Translations under genes and position numbers: made by a program
Part shown: positions 11,463 to 47,492 of the stretch, piece after piece
Layout of the letters: each line of letters opens with the position of its first letter
Position numbering within the stretch: the stretch's first letter is position 1
The notes under the pieces: model-generated
What the model saw: the letters and a program-made list of their open reading frames with translations, nothing else
The model's database searches: none
Told to the model about the DNA's origin: nothing
Assembly (NCBI GenBank): GCA_045576815.1
Contig: JAZNHD010000055.1
Location: forward strand, 14,868 to 78,867
Length of the DNA stretch: 64,000 bases
Direction of reading: 5' to 3'
DNA from: Eubacteriales bacterium
GTDB lineage: Bacteria > Bacillota > Clostridia > Oscillospirales > CAG-272

Positions 11463-11490
11463 AAAAAAGCAGGCAATTGCCTGCTTTTTA
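11463..11490. terminator. Bidirectional intrinsic terminator (pyr operon / PH-like gene)
   Basis: Perfect palindrome AAGCAGGCAATTGCCTGCTT, flanked by an A-run and a T-run. Confidence 0.75.
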
Positions 11491-12114
11491 TATTGTTTGG
11501 ACCTCTTTTTCCGATTCGTCGCTTTCTTTCGGCGCTTCTATTTGTGGAGAGGTTTCTTTTTTCTTTCCGCCAAGTAAAACCTTTGCAACAATTCCAAACT
11601 TGCTTGTTGCGCTTCCGACAGGAGATGCCTTTGCCACCTCTACGACAACGTTTCCCGTCACTACTGCTGCTTTTTTCGCAATATCCACAACATCGATATC
11701 GAGAGCTTCGTTAGTTTCCTTAATCTCGCTCTGGACCTTTTTAACCCCTCTCACGAATTGGGAATTACCGCTTGCCAAACGAAGCGCCTTTAGAGTAAAG
11801 TCTTTCGCTTCCTTGCTGTTTGGAAATTCTAAAAACAACTCGCCGGACGTCAAATAAATTTCAACATTTATTCCTTTTCTAATAATCTGCTTAGAGCCTT
11901 TATAGACTTTTATATCACTTACGCTATGTTCAATGTTTTCAACAATTTCGCTCCACATCTTCTTTGTTGTTGATGTTACAACTATGTTGTAGTTTGTCAA
12001 TAAAAGCTCCCACGTGGTTTTCTTTACCTTTGGATCTTTCTTTCCGTCCTTGAGAAGTTCAACGCTCCCTCTATAAAGGACTGTTTCATCTGATTTTAAT
12101 ACATAGTTTTGCAT
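11488..12114 (-). CDS. Hypothetical protein with a bacterial PH/GRAM-like N-terminal domain and a Lys/Val/Ala-rich C-terminal tail
   Basis: 208 aa from the ATG at 12114, which has a strong AAGGAGGG RBS 6 nt upstream. The N-terminal ~125 aa has the pattern of short bacterial PH-like domains (inference only). I recognised no catalytic motifs. Confidence 0.7.
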   Translation of the reverse strand: MQNYVLKSDETVLYRGSVELLKDGKKDPKVKKTTWELLLTNYNIVVTSTTKKMWSEIVENIEHSVSDIKVYKGSKQIIRKGINVEIYLTSGELFLEFPNSKEAKDFTLKALRLASGNSQFVRGVKKVQSEIKETNEALDIDVVDIAKKAAVVTGNVVVEVAKASPVGSATSKFGIVAKVLLGGKKKETSPQIEAPKESDESEKEVQTI

Positions 12115-12158
12115 GTTGTCCCTCCTTGTTAAAGCCTTTGTTTTTTTCGCGAATCTGT

Positions 12159-12308
12159 AAAAAACAAAAAGTGCGCCCACAATGTGAGCGCACCTCCATT
12201 AAGTACTTCACATTGCTGCGACACAACTTTTTCAGAAAAGGTATAGAAAAAGACGGAAGTACTAAAATGGCATAGTACACCCTTTCTGAAAGTATCAAGT
12301 TATGTCGC
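12159..12308 (-). promoter_or_regulatory. Unclassified structured 5' leader ending in an intrinsic terminator (riboswitch/attenuator-like)
   Basis: Nested helices: P1 12309-12297 with 12229-12217 (13 bp), P2 12292-12281 with 12241-12230, P3 12278-12273 with 12264-12259. A GC hairpin (12193-12171) plus UUUUUGUUUUUU follows, about 45 nt upstream of the RBS. Confidence 0.5.
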
Positions 12309-12314
12309 AAGTAC

Positions 12315-12343
12315 AGTATAGCACAAAAAACTCAGAAACGCAA
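12315..12343 (-). promoter_or_regulatory. Putative sigma-A promoter driving the structured leader and PH-like gene
   Basis: Minus strand reads TTGCGT, 17 nt, TGcTATACT (extended -10). Confidence 0.5.
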
Positions 12344-12354
12344 TATAAAAAGAT

Positions 12355-12385
12355 AAAATGTCAGGCTCGGTGAGCCTGACATTTT
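12355..12385 (-). terminator. Intrinsic terminator of trpB
   Basis: 14-bp hairpin AAAATGTCAGGCTC/GAGCCTGACATTTT, directly after the trpB stop and followed by a U-rich tract on the minus strand. Confidence 0.75.
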
Positions 12386-12387
12386 CT

Positions 12388-13605
12388 TTATCTTATTCCA
12401 TATTTCTCAATGATATAATCCATATCCTTGTCGCCTCTGCCCGAGAGGTTGATAAGGATTGAGCCGCGGCCCATAGTCTTCGCGAGCTTCATGCCATAGG
12501 CAACCGCGTGGGCACTCTCGATAGCCGGGATAATGCCCTCCTTGCGCGAGAGCTCGAAGAATGCGTCAATCGTTTCGTCGTCGTTGACAACATCGTATTT
12601 TACTCTGCCGAGGTCGTGAAGGAATGCGTGCTCGGGGCCCGAGGAGGGGTAGTCAAGACCGCTTGCAACCGAATAGACGGGTGCGGGCTCGCCGTGCTCG
12701 TCCTTGAGCATTATGCTGTTAAATCCGTGCATTATGCCCTCTGTGCCGTATTTGAGGCTTGCCGCATGGTCACCGAGCTGCTCGCCCCTGCCAAGCGGCT
12801 CAACACCGTATATCTCAACGGGGTCATTAAGGAAGCCCGAGAAAATACCCATAGCGTTAGAGCCACCGCCAACGCAGGCAACGACCGCATCAGGAAGCTC
12901 GCCCGTCATGCCAAGGAACTGCTCTCTCGCCTCAACTCCGACAACGCTCTGGAAGTCACGCACCATCATAGGAAAAGGGTGCGGGCCGAGCACCGAGCCG
13001 ATACAGTATATCGCGTCGTGATACTCCTCGGCGTATGCGGCAAAGGCTGCGTCAACCGCCTCCTTGAGAGTCGCAAGACCCTCTTTTACCTCAACGACGT
13101 TTGCGCCGAGTATCTTCATTCTCGCAACGTTGGGCGCTTGCTTTTTTATATCGACAGAACCCATATAAATATCACATTCAAGACCGAAATAAGCCGCCGC
13201 GGTAGCGCGCGGCACGCCGTGCTGACCCGCGCCGGTCTCTGCAATAACCTTTTTCTTGCCCATATATTTCGCGAGCAGCGCCTCACCCATACAGTGATTT
13301 AATTTGTGCGCACCCGTGTGGTTTAGGTCCTCGCGCTTGACATAGAGCTGGACGTTTCCGAGGCTTGCCGACAGTCTTTCAAGATGGGAAATAGGTGTCG
13401 GACGTCCCTGGAAATCACGGCGTATTCTTCTGAGCTCGCCAATAAATCTCGAGGACTTACAGATGGTAAAGTACGCCTCTGTAATCTCCTCCATCGCGCG
13501 CCTCAGCTCGTCTGATATATACACGCCTCCATACTTTCCGAAATAGCCGTCCTTATCAGGATAGTGTTTAAAGTAGGTGTCAAAATCCACTCCGTTAAAA
13601 TTCAT
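12388..13605 (-). CDS. trpB: Tryptophan synthase beta chain (stand-alone, no trpA nearby)
   Basis: 405 aa from the ATG at 13605 ([12 protein letters not shown]...). PLP-enzyme motifs [14 protein letters not shown] and GGGSNAMG are present. The track ORF extends upstream into the T-box leader, which I consider spurious. Confidence 0.85.
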
Positions 13606-13630: not shown

Positions 13631-13892
13631 AAAACAAAAAGCCCCGAGCAGTATTTTTCTCTGCTCGGGGCGAATAAATCGCGGTGCCACCCGAATTCGA
13701 GGTCGTAAGACCTCCTTTTTTCGCACTTGTATGCGCTGTACTGATAACGGTGCCGGCCGTCGGAGCCTACTTGTAAAAACTTTCGGTCCGCCCTCGGAAG
13801 CCCATTCACCACACCCCTTTATACCGCAATCACACCGCCTGCGGCTCTCTTTGATAAAGCGTGTGAGGCTACTCCTCTTCCTCACAGGTTAT
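13631..13892 (-). promoter_or_regulatory. T-box leader, probable Trp specifier (UGG)
   Basis: Minus strand carries the AGAGA bulge, the GGUGUGA distal loop, a specifier loop GAA-UGG-G, and the T-box sequence GGGUGGCACCGCG (13692-13680). A terminator follows (13671-13641) with a U-tract. Confidence 0.85.
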
Positions 13893-13898
13893 GCAAAG

Positions 13899-26707: not shown

Positions 26708-28180
26708 TTACCTCGCCTTTCTTCTGACCACAACGACAAAACCCGCCGCCGCAATAAGCACAGGTATTATAAGAAGCGCCGCGGTATAAAGGCGCGCTGT
26801 GCCCATAGTCAGATTTTCGAGAATTTGATTGTCATAAACCACGCTGTTACAGCCGTATGGCATATCGCCCATGCCGAAAAGCTCGTCAAAGAGCGAATAA
26901 AGAAAATCCTTATTGGAATAGCCGGCGGTTATTATGGCGTCGGCAGCTGCAAGATATACGCTCGATATAACGAACATATTGGCTACCGCCCCGTCCTTAC
27001 CGTTAAGCGCCGAGGTCGCAGCAATCGCATAAGAGCCCGCGGTGTCGGTAGTAGCACCGCCCGACTGACAAACCGCCGATGGCGAGGAAAGAAGCAAAGG
27101 CTTTGCCTCACCGGAAAGAGACAGAGGCGCTGCATCCTTGATTATAACTCTGCCGTCTGTGTTTTCGGCAACAGCCTCACCCAATGCGCCATCGGCAATA
27201 CTAGTAACGAGAGTAAAGCCGTCTGTAGTTATCGCATCATCTGAATCCTTTATGATTTGGCGCCTGCCGTCCTCGGTATTGAAAAGACCGATACCGAACT
27301 CCGAAAGGAACTCGTAAAGCACGGGTAAATCCTTAGTATATGGGTCCAGCGCAACAAAGAAATTACCGCCGCCCTCTGCATAGGTTTTCATTCTTTTCAT
27401 CTCCGTGCGCACATTAGAGGTTGCTGCCGCGCGCTCAAAGTCAATTCTCGGATTAGATATGATAAGAAGGTCGGCCGTTTCGGGAATTTCCGTGCGCTTC
27501 AGATTTATCTCATCCACGTAATATCCTGCGCAGGTGAGAACGTTAAAAAGGTTGAGAGTAGCGGTCTCGCCGTGGCCCGAGGTAAAGTACGCCTCGCCAT
27601 GCTCTCGGGACAGCACCCAGGAAACCATTGAGGCAAAGACCTCTTCGCCGTTATAAGAGGTTGCGTTAAGAGAAGAATCGAGCGTAAAGAAGTCGGCAAA
27701 CCCCGCCGAGCTTATAAGGTCGGTCACAACTCTGTAGTTGCCCTCGCATTCGAATATCACCGAGGTCGTGTGTATTTTATTTGCGTTACCGCGCATGTCG
27801 GTCCTGTACTTCTCAAAATCAAAGAGCTTGCCCTCGGAATCAAGCTGGGTAAGAGCGTTAACGTACCTAAGCTCTATAAATTCGGGATATCTCTCAGCAA
27901 AATTCTTTGCTGTGATATGAACGAACCTGCCGGTAGAATGAGCGTCAAGCGCGTCCTCGTACATACAGAACGTCACGGTAACCCGACGGCCGTCCTCGAT
28001 AGCATCGGCAAAAAGAGTATCGCCGACGTTGCTTATCGAGAGATCCGTCTCTTCCTCGGCATAAACGACTATTCCGAGCGCTGCCGAAAGAGCCCCGAAT
28101 ATAAGATTGAGCACAATCACCGCGCATATGATCAAGGCCGGTGCGGCCTCGTGTGCGAGGGTGCGTTTTATCTTTTCCAT
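26708..28180 (-). CDS. GldG-like ABC-transporter auxiliary component (paralog 1)
   Basis: 490 aa with the same N- and C-terminal TM topology. It lies 3 nt from the next gene. Confidence 0.65.
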   Translation of the reverse strand: MEKIKRTLAHEAAPALIICAVIVLNLIFGALSAALGIVVYAEEETDLSISNVGDTLFADAIEDGRRVTVTFCMYEDALDAHSTGRFVHITAKNFAERYPEFIELRYVNALTQLDSEGKLFDFEKYRTDMRGNANKIHTTSVIFECEGNYRVVTDLISSAGFADFFTLDSSLNATSYNGEEVFASMVSWVLSREHGEAYFTSGHGETATLNLFNVLTCAGYYVDEINLKRTEIPETADLLIISNPRIDFERAAATSNVRTEMKRMKTYAEGGGNFFVALDPYTKDLPVLYEFLSEFGIGLFNTEDGRRQIIKDSDDAITTDGFTLVTSIADGALGEAVAENTDGRVIIKDAAPLSLSGEAKPLLLSSPSAVCQSGGATTDTAGSYAIAATSALNGKDGAVANMFVISSVYLAAADAIITAGYSNKDFLYSLFDELFGMGDMPYGCNSVVYDNQILENLTMGTARLYTAALLIIPVLIAAAGFVVVVRRKAR

Positions 28181-28208
28181 AAAAACAAAATCCTTCTCAA
28201 AAATTAGC

Positions 28209-28916
28209 TTAATTATACCTTCTGCGGTCGTAAACCCGTATAGTCAGGAAGACAAATATGCCCGCGGCAGAAAGGTAGTATATAAGCGAGGCTATATCGA
28301 AATAGCCGTTCGTGAAGCTCTGGAATCTCGTGAATACCGAAAGGGAATCAAGCAGGAATCTGAGCCAATATTCCGTCGGCAAAAGCGAGCTGATAAGACC
28401 TATCGCGAGAAAGGCAAGTATAATAGCCATAGTACCAACCGCCGCGGTAAGCTGATTTTCTGTAAGCGAGGACACGAAAAGTCCGATAGAAATAAACACG
28501 AGACCGACGAGCAGCATGGCCAAAACGTTACCGATAAGCACAGCTAGCTTTACCTCTGCGTAGGGTGCGAGTATGATGAAGTAAAGAGAGGAGAAAAGAA
28601 GGGCGCCAGCGTACATAATGTATGATGCAAGGAGCTTTCCGAAAACGACGCCCGTAATCGACACAGGGGAGGTCATAAGCAGCTGCTCCGTGCGCATTTT
28701 CCTTTCCTCACTAAAGGATTTCATAGTCAGAATCGGCAGAATAATTGCCGAGAAAAGAAGCATAAAGGTAAAATATGCCGTAACGTCAGCACTCATTGAA
28801 AAAAGCGTCGTGTAGCTGAAAACGGCTGCAGAAACCGCCAGAAAGGAAGCGAGGAAAACATATCCTACAACACCGGTAAAATAAGCTCGCAGTTCTCTTT
28901 TTAATATTGCAATCAT
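28209..28916 (-). CDS. ABC-2 type permease (GldF-like)
   Basis: 235 aa, about 6 TM helices, starting MIAILKRELRAYFTGVVGYVFLA, typical of the ABC-2 family. Confidence 0.8.
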   Translation of the reverse strand: MIAILKRELRAYFTGVVGYVFLASFLAVSAAVFSYTTLFSMSADVTAYFTFMLLFSAIILPILTMKSFSEERKMRTEQLLMTSPVSITGVVFGKLLASYIMYAGALLFSSLYFIILAPYAEVKLAVLIGNVLAMLLVGLVFISIGLFVSSLTENQLTAAVGTMAIILAFLAIGLISSLLPTEYWLRFLLDSLSVFTRFQSFTNGYFDIASLIYYLSAAGIFVFLTIRVYDRRRYN

Positions 28917-28934
28917 TGCTTTTCCCTCTCTTTC

Positions 28935-29912
28935 TTACCTTCTCGATTTTGCACGTCGGCCGCCCGCTACCGCAGGGTTGTCGGATTTTTCAACGAGTCT
29001 TATGAATACGCTCTCAAGGTCGGTGCCCACAGCGGAAAGACCGATTATAGGCCAGCCGCCTTTTGAGCAGACATTGAAAATGGGCTTTCTCACGTCGGTG
29101 CCTCTTTCACTTTCAACAACGTACGCATACGCGTCTCCGTCTCTCGTGCCGGTTGCCTCAACGTCCTTTACGCCAACGATTTTTTTAAGCGCCGCAAGCA
29201 CGTCCTGCTGGGGACCCGCAATCTTAACCTCATAGCGATAGCCCTCTTCGATAGTCCTCGTTATCTCGTCGGTGCGCTCGTCAGCGATTATCTTACCCTT
29301 GTTTATGATGATAACTCTCTCACAAACAGCCTGTACCTCTGCAAGAATGTGAGTTGAGAGTATAACAGTGTGGCGCCGTCCGAGCGTTCTTATAAGATTT
29401 CTGACCTCGAGAATCTGCTTCGGGTCAAGGCCAACCGTCGGCTCGTCGAATATTATAACCTTCGGGTCACCGATAAGCGCCTGAGCTATGCCGACTCTCT
29501 GCTTATAGCCCTTCGAGAGATTGCGGATAAGTCTCTTTTTAACGTCGGCAATTTTGGTCACCGACATAATCTCCTCAAGGTGCTCATCGTGCTCGATAGT
29601 ACAGCTCTTAAGCTCGTACACGAAGTCGAGATATTCCTCAACCGTCATATCCGGATAAAGAGGAGGCTGCTCGGGAAGAAACCCTATGGATTTTTTCGCA
29701 TCTATGGGATTTTCAACTATATTTATACCGCCGACCGACGCCTCGCCTGAGCTAGAGGAGAGATATCCCGTAAGTATATTCATAGTCGTACTCTTGCCCG
29801 CACCGTTAGGTCCGAGCAATCCTACGACCTCACCCTCTCCAATCTCAAAGGAGATGTCGTTTAGGGCGTAATTGTTTCCGTATCTTTTAACAAGATTCTT
29901 AACCTTTACCAT
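28935..29912 (-). CDS. ABC transporter ATP-binding protein (GldA-like)
   Basis: Walker A GPNGAGKST, signature LSKGYKQR and Walker B IIFDEPTVGLD are present. I preferred the ATG at 29912 (MVKVKNL...) over the track start at 29951. Confidence 0.9.
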   Translation of the reverse strand: MVKVKNLVKRYGNNYALNDISFEIGEGEVVGLLGPNGAGKSTTMNILTGYLSSSSGEASVGGINIVENPIDAKKSIGFLPEQPPLYPDMTVEEYLDFVYELKSCTIEHDEHLEEIMSVTKIADVKKRLIRNLSKGYKQRVGIAQALIGDPKVIIFDEPTVGLDPKQILEVRNLIRTLGRRHTVILSTHILAEVQAVCERVIIINKGKIIADERTDEITRTIEEGYRYEVKIAGPQQDVLAALKKIVGVKDVEATGTRDGDAYAYVVESERGTDVRKPIFNVCSKGGWPIIGLSAVGTDLESVFIRLVEKSDNPAVAGGRRAKSRR

Positions 29913-30120
29913 TTTGCATGTCCTTTCGCCTTTACATAAATTGGCTGCCAAGCGTACACCCGGCAGCTCGAATTTTCGTTTTGGCTATTGCTTTAGCTAA
30001 AATATAAAATATTATATCATATAAATATAGACAAACTGTGAACGATTTTGTAAAAATATGTGCCGAGATATAAATATTTCGTGACGGTACCGAAAAAGAT
30101 GGCAAAGTGTGGAATATCTC

Positions 30121-30149
30121 TTGACAAAACGGCAGGATAAGTGTATAAT
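30121..30149 (+). promoter_or_regulatory. Putative sigma-A promoter of trpS
   Basis: TTGACA, 17 nt, TGtTATAAT (extended -10). Confidence 0.6.
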
Positions 30150-30188
30150 TTCTTTATCATTTGAAGAGTGTCACGAAAGGAAAAAGTG

Positions 30189-31184
30189 ATGATTGCCGAT
30201 AAAAAAATCGTTTTCTCGGGTGTTCAGCCCTCGGGAAATCTTACCATAGGAAACTACCTCGGCGCGATTAAGAATTTCTCGCGCTTCTCCGAGGATTATA
30301 AAACCTTTTACTGCGTGGTTGACCTGCACGCTATAACCGTAAGGCAGGTGCCTGCCGAGCTGCGCCGCAGAACCTACGAGACCTTGGCCCTCTATATGGC
30401 GTGCGGCCTTGACGAGAAAAAGAATACGCTTTTTGTGCAGTCACACGTGCCGGCGCACGCTGAGCTCGGTTGGATTCTCGACTGCTACACGATGTTTGGC
30501 GAGCTTTCTCGTATGACGCAGTTTAAAGACAAGAGCCAAAAGCACTCGCAGAATATAAACGCAGGTCTTTTCACATACCCCTCTCTTATGGCGGCCGACA
30601 TTCTCCTTTATCAGACCGACCTCGTGCCCGTAGGCATTGACCAGAAGCAGCACCTCGAGCTATCCCGAGATATAGCTCTTCGCTTCAATCAAATTTACGG
30701 CGACACATTCACCGTGCCCGAGGGTTATATTCCCACCGATACGATGAAAATTATGTCGCTTGCCGAGCCCACCTCGAAGATGTCGAAGTCCGATACTAAT
30801 CAGAATGCCGTCGTATATATCCTTGACTCAAAGGACGATATAATCCGCAAGTTTAAAAAGGCAGTTACCGACTCCGAAGCAGAGGTAAGATACTCCGAGG
30901 ATAAGCCCGGTGTTTCCAACCTTATGACTATCTACCGCGCATTCACCGGCAAGAGCCTTGATGAAATCGAAAGAGAGTTTTCCGGCCGCGGATACGGAGA
31001 CTTTAAGCTCGCCGTAGGAGAAGTTTGCGCTGACGGACTTGCCCCCGTAAGAGACGAGTTTGCACGGCTTATGGCGGATAAGGCACATCTCGAGGCAGTC
31101 ATGAAGTCAGGCGCTGACGAGGCGGCATATTACGCAAGAAAAACCATGTCCAAGGTCAGAAGAAAGATTGGTTTTGTTAACTAA
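30189..31184 (+). CDS. trpS: Tryptophanyl-tRNA synthetase
   Basis: Class I motifs are present (GVQPSGNLTIGNYLG and KMSKS). 331 aa from ATG 30189. Confidence 0.9.
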   Translation: MIADKKIVFSGVQPSGNLTIGNYLGAIKNFSRFSEDYKTFYCVVDLHAITVRQVPAELRRRTYETLALYMACGLDEKKNTLFVQSHVPAHAELGWILDCYTMFGELSRMTQFKDKSQKHSQNINAGLFTYPSLMAADILLYQTDLVPVGIDQKQHLELSRDIALRFNQIYGDTFTVPEGYIPTDTMKIMSLAEPTSKMSKSDTNQNAVVYILDSKDDIIRKFKKAVTDSEAEVRYSEDKPGVSNLMTIYRAFTGKSLDEIEREFSGRGYGDFKLAVGEVCADGLAPVRDEFARLMADKAHLEAVMKSGADEAAYYARKTMSKVRRKIGFVN

Positions 31185-31210
31185 ACCGCTCGTTTTGACA
31201 ACTATAATTT

Positions 31211-31250
31211 ACAAAAGCGCAACAGCAGAAACTGTTGCGCTTTTGTTTTT
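31211..31250 (+). terminator. Intrinsic terminator of trpS
   Basis: 15-bp hairpin ACAAAAGCGCAACAG/CTGTTGCGCTTTTGT followed by TTTTT. Confidence 0.8.
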
Positions 31251-31370
31251 CGACCCGACAATGAAAAATGAAAAGTTCATTTTTTCGCCTTGACACCCTT
31301 CCATTTTTCAAAACCGTATCTTTTACAATCTCAATAATGAGTGCGTAAATATCTTTTTTACAAAAATCTA

Positions 31371-47261: not shown

Positions 47262-47492
47262 AAAAACCCCGAATGGCGAAGGGCCATTCGGGGCGAATTA
47301 TCGCGGTACCACCCGAAGTTGCGGAAAATCCGCATCTCTTTCGCTTTAACGCAGCGAACGTCGCCGCCTAAGTTTCCCTCAGCGGCACAGCTCGTGGAGT
47401 GATTTTCGTGCCATATCCCCATCGGCTCGCACCAACCGCCGACTCTCTGAAGGTTCTATAAGCACTACTCTTTCCGTCATTGCCTTTATGCT
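47262..47492 (-). promoter_or_regulatory. T-box leader, probable Ile specifier (AUC)
   Basis: Minus strand carries the AGAGA bulge, the GGUGCGA distal loop, a specifier loop GAAA-AUC-A, and the T-box GGGUGGUACCGCG (47314-47302). A terminator CCCCGAAUGGC/GCCAUUCGGGG plus U-tract follows. Confidence 0.9.

Follow-up and report, generated by a model that had tools for sequence, protein, structure and literature searches.

A gene for a 208-aa protein with a PH-like fold, located on the minus strand of a 64-kb stretch of a Eubacteriales bacterium genome (contig JAZNHD010000055.1; hereafter the window, with all coordinates given on its minus strand), appears to be preceded by two regulatory devices in series, an attenuator and a promoter-like module, and we put the probability of this reading at roughly 0.55. 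In the mechanism we propose, a sigma-A promoter would make a leader RNA that immediately forms a long closing hairpin at its 5′ end, and the ~35 nt that follow could pair with a strong terminator, on its 5′ arm and loop, to give an antiterminator. In the default state the terminator, as the more stable of the two, would win and transcription would stop at ~150 nt; an effector, be it a protein or a small ligand, would stabilise the antiterminator, such that polymerase reads into the PH-fold gene. This effector might dock on the conserved base of the hairpin and a GAAUAU element, with the long hairpin possibly forming a docking platform that stacks on the antiterminator. The module, a 26-nt directional element of the form TTCGCGAAAAAAACA-N5-box-purines, would be a non-sigma-70-like promoter that opens a second, leader-free route of expression, and the same signal heads early genes and the RNA-polymerase operon in a group of gut/anaerobe siphophages.

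At its 5′ side the leader unit is bounded by the intrinsic terminator of an upstream trpB-like gene (12355-12385), for which a terminator scan gave a 14-pair stem followed by a T tract. Next comes the sigma-A-type promoter of the leader (12315-12343), already claimed in an earlier reading of the letters alone (the sequence-only reading) and indeed present, with TTGCGT at 12343-12338, a 17-nt spacer containing TG and the −10 element TATACT at 12320-12315 (TGcTATACT). Having 8 of 12 core matches, and thus absent from the listing of a consensus promoter scan, it carries an extended −10; a TTGnnn-17-TATAAT/TATACT promoter occupies the equivalent site, 4-6 nt ahead of P1, in 8/8 homologous leaders (defined below), in which the closing hairpin begins 1-6 nt past the −10. 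Folding of the 202-nt leader gave −66.8 kcal/mol versus a shuffle mean of −44.1 (z = −4.98), with none of 200 shuffles being as good.

The extended 5′ hairpin (12217-12309; −38.3 kcal/mol) comprises P1 (12309-12297 with 12229-12217; 13 bp, one G-U), P2 (12291-12279 with 12242-12230) and P3 (12278-12273 with 12264-12259), all of which are found in the minimum-energy fold as stacked segments of one long imperfect hairpin. P1 and P3 lie exactly where they had been paired by eye. The helix P2 likewise holds, without the single bulge ascribed to it, as RNAfold gives 13 contiguous pairs including one G-U. What had been described as three nested helices is a single extended hairpin instead, and the supposed 17-nt unpaired junction is a 16-nt one-sided 3′ internal loop between P2 and P3, there being no multi-helix junction. 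P1 and P2 are separated by the 5-nt 5′ bulge GAUAC (12292-12296), the local form of the GAAUAU element, directly 3′ of the P1 5′ arm. The hexamer GUACUU does occur three times, as had been pointed out; a role of these repeats as protein-binding triplets was rejected, since they are absent from the homologs as a conserved feature. A leader peptide was rejected as well: the small open reading frames (MPF* in the window, MKF* in L004, a long frame in L013) vary in frame and presence.

Upstream of PH-fold orthologs in related gut Clostridia, the leader is conserved with covariation, as emerged from an alignment of ortholog upstream regions, a check that had been suggested along with the original claim. 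Twenty-five loci with orthologs were retrieved, eight of which have the leader arrangement: the window, L001, L004, L016 (=L017), L021 (=L022), L013, L028 and L008. These eight represent ~5-6 sequence lineages and encode proteins 37-84% identical to the window protein, and all share the order of promoter, closing hairpin, 16-24-nt linker, strong terminator and TTCGCGAA. The PH-fold gene family is distributed in Christensenellaceae and other Clostridia. Hairpin length is ~95 nt in the window type and ~150-170 nt in L008, L013 and L028; the base can be aligned and the apical part, ~40 to ~120 nt across lineages, cannot. Across the eight homologs, P1 is 97.9% paired (12 aligned positions anchored on the closing G-C), and compensatory two-sided changes, e.g. 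G-C to C-G or C-G to A-U, affect 7 of the 12 pairs. None of 500 shuffles reached this P1 score, and slid controls were 35-51% paired. Formal pair counting covered P1 alone; P2 and the terminator could not be aligned position by position with MAFFT.

Beyond P1, the GAAUAU element (GAUAC in the window) stands at the same position in all eight leaders, even where the P1 sequence differs, and is paired in some of them and unpaired in others. The candidate conserved core of the leader is limited to this element and the P1 base, with a variable apex. Barring one chance-like match, the P1 hairpin signature was confined to sites before the PH-fold gene family in the 1.56 Mb scanned. The sense strand gave the better fold in 8/8 leaders, by 2.5-15 kcal/mol relative to the antisense strand and with more G-U pairs, and this asymmetry indicates that the leader is an RNA on the gene's strand and disfavours a DNA-level palindrome. 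In two loci, a tRNA gene and repeated GGAGTATAACCGG-containing elements were noted 0.3-0.6 kb upstream of the leader (L021 1913-1986, L028 1826-1899, plus flanks), which may be the remnant of an integration site.

The terminator, ribosome-binding site and start codon ATG 12114 listed in the sequence-only reading were all recovered. In the leader terminator (12159-12197; −20.5 kcal/mol), the terminator scan found a 14-pair, GC-rich stem (12197-12167) with a 3-nt loop, followed by TTTTTGTTTTTT; the 12-nt U tract (UUUUUGUUUUUU) ends at 12159. The ribosome-binding site AAGGAGGG (12127-12120) and the ATG (12114-12112; together 12112-12127) were read from the sequence and the homolog alignment. A terminator lies between promoter and gene in 8/8 homologous leaders, and in L001 its stem contains a compensatory A-U to G-C change. 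The proposed complementarity between linker and terminator, with its possible antiterminator, also proved real: CAATGTGA and TCACATTG form an exact 8-nt inverted repeat, the match being equally exact when written as CAAUGUGA/UCACAUUG. The resulting candidate antiterminator hairpin (12181-12214), which takes in the terminator's 5′ arm and loop, consists of an outer stem (12214-12208 with 12187-12181) and an inner stem (12206-12201 with 12195-12190), starting 1-6 nt after P1 among the leaders.

To assess the antiterminator, each leader was refolded without the 3′ arm of the terminator, with linkers shuffled 300 times as the comparison. Pairing of the linker with the 5′ arm and loop left of the terminator occurred in 8/8 leaders, at −5.4 to −14.6 kcal/mol. 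For the window the hairpin reached −11.9 kcal/mol (z −4.88 versus shuffled linker), followed by L001 (−11.5 kcal/mol, z −4.5), L013 (−7.8, z −3.8), L004 (−13.7, z −3.6), L021 (−14.6, z −3.5), L016 (−13.3, z −3.3) and L008 (−11.3, z −2.8); z thus falls between −2.8 and −4.9 in seven of the eight, with L028 being the weakest (−5.4, z −1.8). The antiterminator sequence differs by lineage and the pairing persists: where L004 differs from L016, or the window from L001, the changes are accommodated by G-U or restored pairs. The minimum-energy fold of the full-length L004 leader even picks the antiterminator over the terminator. The leader accordingly combines two features of a transcription attenuator, a terminator between promoter and gene and a conserved, mutually exclusive hairpin on the terminator 5′ arm.

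From these sequence comparisons we favour a regulated attenuator over a constitutive terminator, because the terminator of a constitutive small RNA would not need linker complementarity, which is present in all eight diverged leaders. The latter explanation holds promoter, hairpin and terminator to be a stand-alone, always-terminating small RNA, acting in trans or as an insulator, and the PH-fold gene to be transcribed only from the module; the link between RNA and gene would be one of synteny or partnership, as in layouts where an RNA antitoxin is followed by a terminator. In line with it, the terminator is very strong (14 bp plus 12-nt U tract) and kept in the full-length fold of the window, the hairpin is located at the very 5′ terminus, a trait of stable small RNAs, modules in phages and metagenomes commonly follow the terminator of a preceding unit, and orthologs work without the leader unit. 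However, the unit was never found apart from the PH-fold gene in the 1.56 Mb scanned. Tandem direct repeats of the kind seen in type III toxin-antitoxin systems were not found upstream of the terminator, where only scattered two-copy matches occur, and the protein lies outside the defence-system families of PADLOC. We judge the small-RNA explanation to be unlikely.

A regulated attenuator could belong to a known class of leader. With Rfam 15 at gathering thresholds, the only hits in the whole window were two T-box leaders, both outside the leader studied here, and a permissive scan of 12000-12450 (E ≤ 10) returned noise alone, the best score being 21 bits against a cutoff of 229, with no riboswitch or T-box. 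Homologous leaders from five lineages gave no Rfam match either. The Rfam scan had been proposed beforehand, and its outcome bears out the statement that no known riboswitch class could be recognised. The two T-box leaders are full-length (13663-13894 and 47286-47489, minus strand; 118.6 and 120.4 bits), and the former is the control of the trpB-like gene just upstream of the leader unit.

T-box leaders (RF00230) share with the present one the position in a Firmicutes 5′ leader, a long stem at the 5′ end ahead of antiterminator and terminator hairpins that exclude each other, and an antiterminator weaker than the terminator, such that an effector is needed. In contrast to them, this leader has no specifier loop, T-box sequence or UGGN bulge, its antiterminator internal loops span 1-3 nt, RF00230 does not match at E ≤ 10 (the real T-boxes of the window score 118-120 bits), and the gene it precedes is unrelated to amino acids. 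Protein-dependent antitermination leaders include the ribonucleic antiterminator (RAT) targets of BglG/LicT, ANTAR targets and HutP leaders. The resemblance to these lies in a weak two-tier antiterminator that overlaps the 5′ arm of a strong terminator, an arrangement that calls for a protein to stabilise the antiterminator. Yet those systems have no long hairpin upstream, RAT and ANTAR sequence patterns are absent and no PRD or ANTAR regulator gene lies nearby. Unlike an ANTAR target, moreover, the leader forms a single two-tier hairpin and not two tandem hairpins with hexanucleotide loops (terminal loops of 5, 3, 8 and 7 nt).

Orphan riboswitch candidates with terminator platforms are similar in their promoter-proximal structure, covariation, intrinsic terminator and narrow gene association. 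A true small-molecule riboswitch would have the long hairpin as its aptamer, with the ligand setting the choice between terminator and antiterminator; the form of the expression platform, the conserved GAAUAU at an internal loop and the lack of an Rfam family speak for this. However, the would-be aptamer is a single rod with a variable apex that cannot be aligned between lineages, in place of a conserved multi-stem ligand pocket, and it has few conserved unpaired nucleotides. P1 and the antiterminator share no strand, so ligand-driven closure of P1 would not be transmitted by the usual mechanism, and the gene offers no metabolic hint. The leader is, moreover, known so far before one gene family in Christensenellaceae-like Clostridia. 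A riboswitch in this sense therefore strikes us as improbable, clearly more so than a small RNA. The original claim had been a riboswitch or protein-mediated attenuator: the attenuator is supported by conservation, covariation and alternative pairing, and nothing specific supports a small-molecule riboswitch over a protein. What we are left with is a terminator/antiterminator leader outside any Rfam 15 family that has been seen to date in front of a single PH-fold gene family.

The sequence-only reading had held read-through past the terminator to be the only way to express the gene. This is probably wrong, as a promoter-like module (12128-12153) lies between terminator and ribosome-binding site and is kept in nearly all orthologs. 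In the window it begins 5 nt past the U tract and consists of TTCGCGAAAAAAACA (12153-12139), N5, the box TTTAAC (12133-12128) and purines. Across nearly all orthologs TTCGCGAAAAAAACA stands 39-54 nt before the ATG, including the variants TTCGCTAAAAAAACA, TACGCGAAAAAAACA, CTCGTGAAAAAAACA, TTCGCGAATTTTACA and TTCGCGAAATTTGCA, and the module is kept also in orthologs without hairpin or terminator. What lies upstream of it varies: a plain sigma-A promoter 9-45 nt away in L010, L019, L026 and L071, a divergent gene of the XRE family with operators in L006, L012, L018 and L014, and only a stop codon or short spacer in L005 and L023, which have no recognisable promoter besides the module. Around TTCGCG in the window (12137-12168) lies a perfect 10-nt inverted repeat, made up of the U tract of the terminator (TTTGTTTTTT) and the A tract of the module (AAAAAACAAA), and a similar T(n)CGCGA(n) symmetry was seen in L005, L010, L021 and L028.

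Outside the ortholog family the module is widespread. The window has a single copy, and a module regulon within these 64 kb was rejected on this count. A metagenome scan gave 85 contigs that carry the 15-mer with GGAGG and ATG behind it, and just one of these has a gene of the family. In IMG/VR, 88 viral contigs had the 15-mer followed by N5 and TAT, at up to four copies each. A position weight matrix (PWM) from 108 non-redundant copies gave the consensus TTCGCGAAAAAAACA-N4-C-TATWAT-G-R-R-R, in which positions 26-27 are 100% and positions 28-29 97% purine. An RNA stem between the N5 spacer and bases past the box was rejected, as the PWM copies lack the covariation. Chromosomal genes behind the module include those for small membrane proteins, XRE helix-turn-helix (HTH) proteins, proteins with DUF4230, DUF1232 or DUF2207_C, and three members of the EcsC family, of which one has a SHOCT domain. 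On the metagenome contigs L081, L086, L051, L101 and L030, the exact module directly precedes genes for EcsC-family, SHOCT, DUF4230, DUF1232 and many small membrane proteins. The genes behind the exact module hint at a coherent regulon of membrane-associated proteins. Literature searches with the literal motif string returned only primers and unrelated sequences, and none of the known operators considered (Spo0A box, cre, CodY, LexA, extracytoplasmic function sigma factor, SigH and others) fitted. As far as such text searches show, the module is undescribed, and we consider it the more surprising result of the two.

Most likely, to judge from its sequence context, the module is a non-canonical promoter, independent of the leader. 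Among 109 copies, 31% stand directly behind a terminator-like hairpin and T tract and 13% within 85 nt of a sigma-A-like promoter, the other 56% being near neither; a promoter is the simplest reading of this. Its geometry is not of the sigma-70 type, where 16-18 bp separate the elements and transcription starts ~7 nt past the −10: TTCGCG is 14 bp from the box, a Shine-Dalgarno (SD) sequence begins 1-5 nt past the box in at least seven viral copies and strong hairpins begin at position 26 ± 3 of the module. A tRNA-like gene at L141 4368-4463, whose D and T arms are canonical and whose anticodon loop is odd, has its 5′ end where the TATAAT box of the module ends, and a U tract follows it. With SD, hairpins and tRNA-like gene placed right after the box, the 5′ end of the RNA would therefore lie at or before ~position 26. 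From tRNA scans of 60 viral loci, a single gene adjoining the module emerged, too few to fix the start site. Many module copies in the viral loci L114-L199 (e.g. L121, L128, L136, L144 and L179) are followed at once by a purine-rich 5′ arm that pairs with a downstream CUCUCUUUUU-type arm, giving a hairpin and U tract before the SD; this post-module hairpin looks like a promoter-proximal terminator or a 5′ stabiliser.

The same geometry can be turned against a promoter. The module might be a loading or pause site for an antitermination factor, the −10-like box causing a sigma-dependent pause, or a site of RNA processing, in which case the gene would depend on read-through. Sigma-70 geometry would cut off the SD, the hairpins and the L141 tRNA-like gene that start right after the box; the 13% of copies near a sigma-A-like promoter are 3-68 nt downstream of its −10, and many phage copies continue at once into hairpin and U tract. 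However, the 31% of copies directly behind an intrinsic terminator, the 56% without nearby promoter or terminator, and L005 and L023 all speak for a promoter, and the strict purine run at positions 26-29 after a pyrimidine resembles an initiation site. We regard a non-promoter role as rather unlikely, if a little less so than the small RNA discussed above. In middle promoters of T4 with a MotA box and in T7-type promoters, a non-sigma-70 element takes the place of the −35 or directly adjoins the start site. The module is comparable to these in being a long, contiguous, directional motif that is repeated in phage intergenic regions and whose A/T box adjoins a purine-rich start; its sequence is unrelated to theirs and to anything from the YonO system.

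Several observations weigh against attenuator and promoter-like module acting in series. The window antiterminator, at −11.9 kcal/mol, is far weaker than the terminator at −20.5 kcal/mol, so an effector would have to tip the balance; no effector was found, nor does the locus have a linked gene for an RNA-binding regulator. Between P1 and the antiterminator there is no common strand, which leaves the long hairpin without an obvious strand-exchange role, and this hairpin is therefore not a classical P1 switch. The covariation sample amounts to eight sequences from ~5-6 lineages, and the arms for the P1 pair count were those of the sequences' individual folds. The leader is absent altogether from about half of the orthologs, which makes it dispensable for the gene. 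As to the module, in L010, L019, L026 and L071 it is simply part of the 5′ untranslated region, and its box is degenerate in the window and most orthologs (TTTAAC or TCTTTT versus the consensus TATWAT), with purines and SD still following.

Phages provide a further view of the module. ORF (open reading frame) clustering indicated 26 of 86 viral loci to encode an 875-1025-aa protein of phrog_4291, annotated 'RNA-dependent RNA polymerase' (RdRP), which has a DFDGD motif and, at either end, sigma-region-4-like HTH domains. Proteins of this type are described in a preprint as YonO-like putative RNA polymerases of a phage group comprising actinophages and phages of Lactococcus and Faecalibacterium, for which no promoter was described (bioRxiv 10.1101/842583); for YonO itself, a single-polypeptide RNA polymerase, the promoter was left undefined in a 2017 paper (PMC5467207). 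The module precedes the polymerase gene in 26/26 loci, by 0.9-1.8 kb and on the same strand, and heads an operon with the order module, hairpin, endonuclease, exonuclease and YonO/RdRP-like polymerase. Faecalibacterium phage FP_oengus (L203), whose polymerase operon spans 27682-31365, has nine copies of the variant GACGCGAAAAAWWCA-N5-CTTTATG-R, all on the plus strand, situated in the early and middle region and before the polymerase operon, with none in the late genes.

The module is thereby linked to phages encoding YonO/RdRP-like polymerases, and these enzymes could themselves be what reads it. The idea that it is the promoter of the phage's own YonO-like polymerase was, however, weakened on three counts: the variant does not track the polymerase, the module heads the polymerase operon itself, and Arthrobacter phage KeaneyLin has no motif, its polymerase being 43% identical to the reference polymerase from L118. 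Indeed, phages with the exact shared 15-mer have polymerases only 42-57% identical to each other, and the FP_oengus polymerase is 58% identical to that of L137, which has the TTCGCG form. It would thus seem that the motif variant goes with the host, not with the phage polymerase. Because the variants do not fit the polymerase phylogeny, the module heads the polymerase operon and chromosomal EcsC, DUF4230, DUF1232, SHOCT and PH-like genes stand behind it as well, a host-encoded factor is somewhat more likely to read the module. More tentatively, and with the odds still against it, TTCGCGAAAAAAACA-N5-TATWAT-GRRR may constitute an undescribed promoter class of gut/anaerobe Clostridia that is read by a host factor or a non-canonical polymerase. 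YonO/RdRP-like phages would use it for early genes and the polymerase operon, and the host for membrane-associated, stress-type genes (PH-like, EcsC, SHOCT, DUF4230, DUF1232).

The gene behind both devices (11488-12114) is followed by an intrinsic terminator (11464-11489) that the terminator scan indicated to be bidirectional and common to a convergent pyrB-like gene. In the AlphaFold model, the 208 aa encoded from ATG 12114 form an N-terminal PH-like beta-sandwich (strands within residues 12-96; a helix at 100-115), three helices and a disordered acidic tail; the predicted local distance difference test score (pLDDT) is mostly 79-97 for residues 11-120, 70-71 for 121-140, 59 for 141-150 and below 40 from 151. 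Foldseek matched the model to many PH domains (probability 1.0, E about 1e-5), so by prediction the protein has the seven-stranded beta-sandwich plus C-terminal helix of a PH-like fold. It was described earlier as having no known function, and it matched no Pfam family, bPH included, and no PADLOC or PHROG family. Protein-pattern scans of genome contigs (with the single protein as the pattern), metagenome contigs and IMG/VR viral contigs found no family members; the PH-fold gene is therefore not phage-borne in IMG/VR.

Translation from GTG 12180, which would have placed the hairpin in the coding sequence, was rejected: 32/32 aligned homologs have an M-E/Q/K-N-Y start behind a strong ribosome-binding site, matching ATG 12114, and so the hairpin is not coding and the leader is non-coding as supposed. 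This corrects the annotated gene start, as the public 230-aa call (P0001) begins inside the terminator. P0002 (214 aa) is likewise over-extended, across its own ribosome-binding site. The gene neighbourhood varies between ortholog loci, with a bPH_4 gene or a divergent XRE HTH gene as frequent neighbours; in L006, L012, L018, L014 and L015 the latter lies ~100-250 nt upstream of the ortholog. In these XRE lineages, paired inverted-repeat operators (AGAAC-N4-GTTCT, or GCACTTAT..TAAGnGCA) overlap the sigma-A promoter, a different regulatory front end to the same PH-fold gene and module.

If termination in the leader is regulated, it would be an orphan cis-regulatory RNA, and its effector would give the first functional handle on an unannotated PH-fold family. 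The module, a long, highly conserved directional signal common to a set of host genes and many uncultured phages, may matter more than the leader; its recogniser would bear on early transcription in phages with YonO-like polymerases and on host genes wired to a phage-type signal. Should it represent an undescribed promoter class, the PH-fold gene, in those lineages where the orphan attenuator is stacked in front of the module, would respond both to the signal sensed by its leader and to the trigger of that class, possibly phage infection itself.

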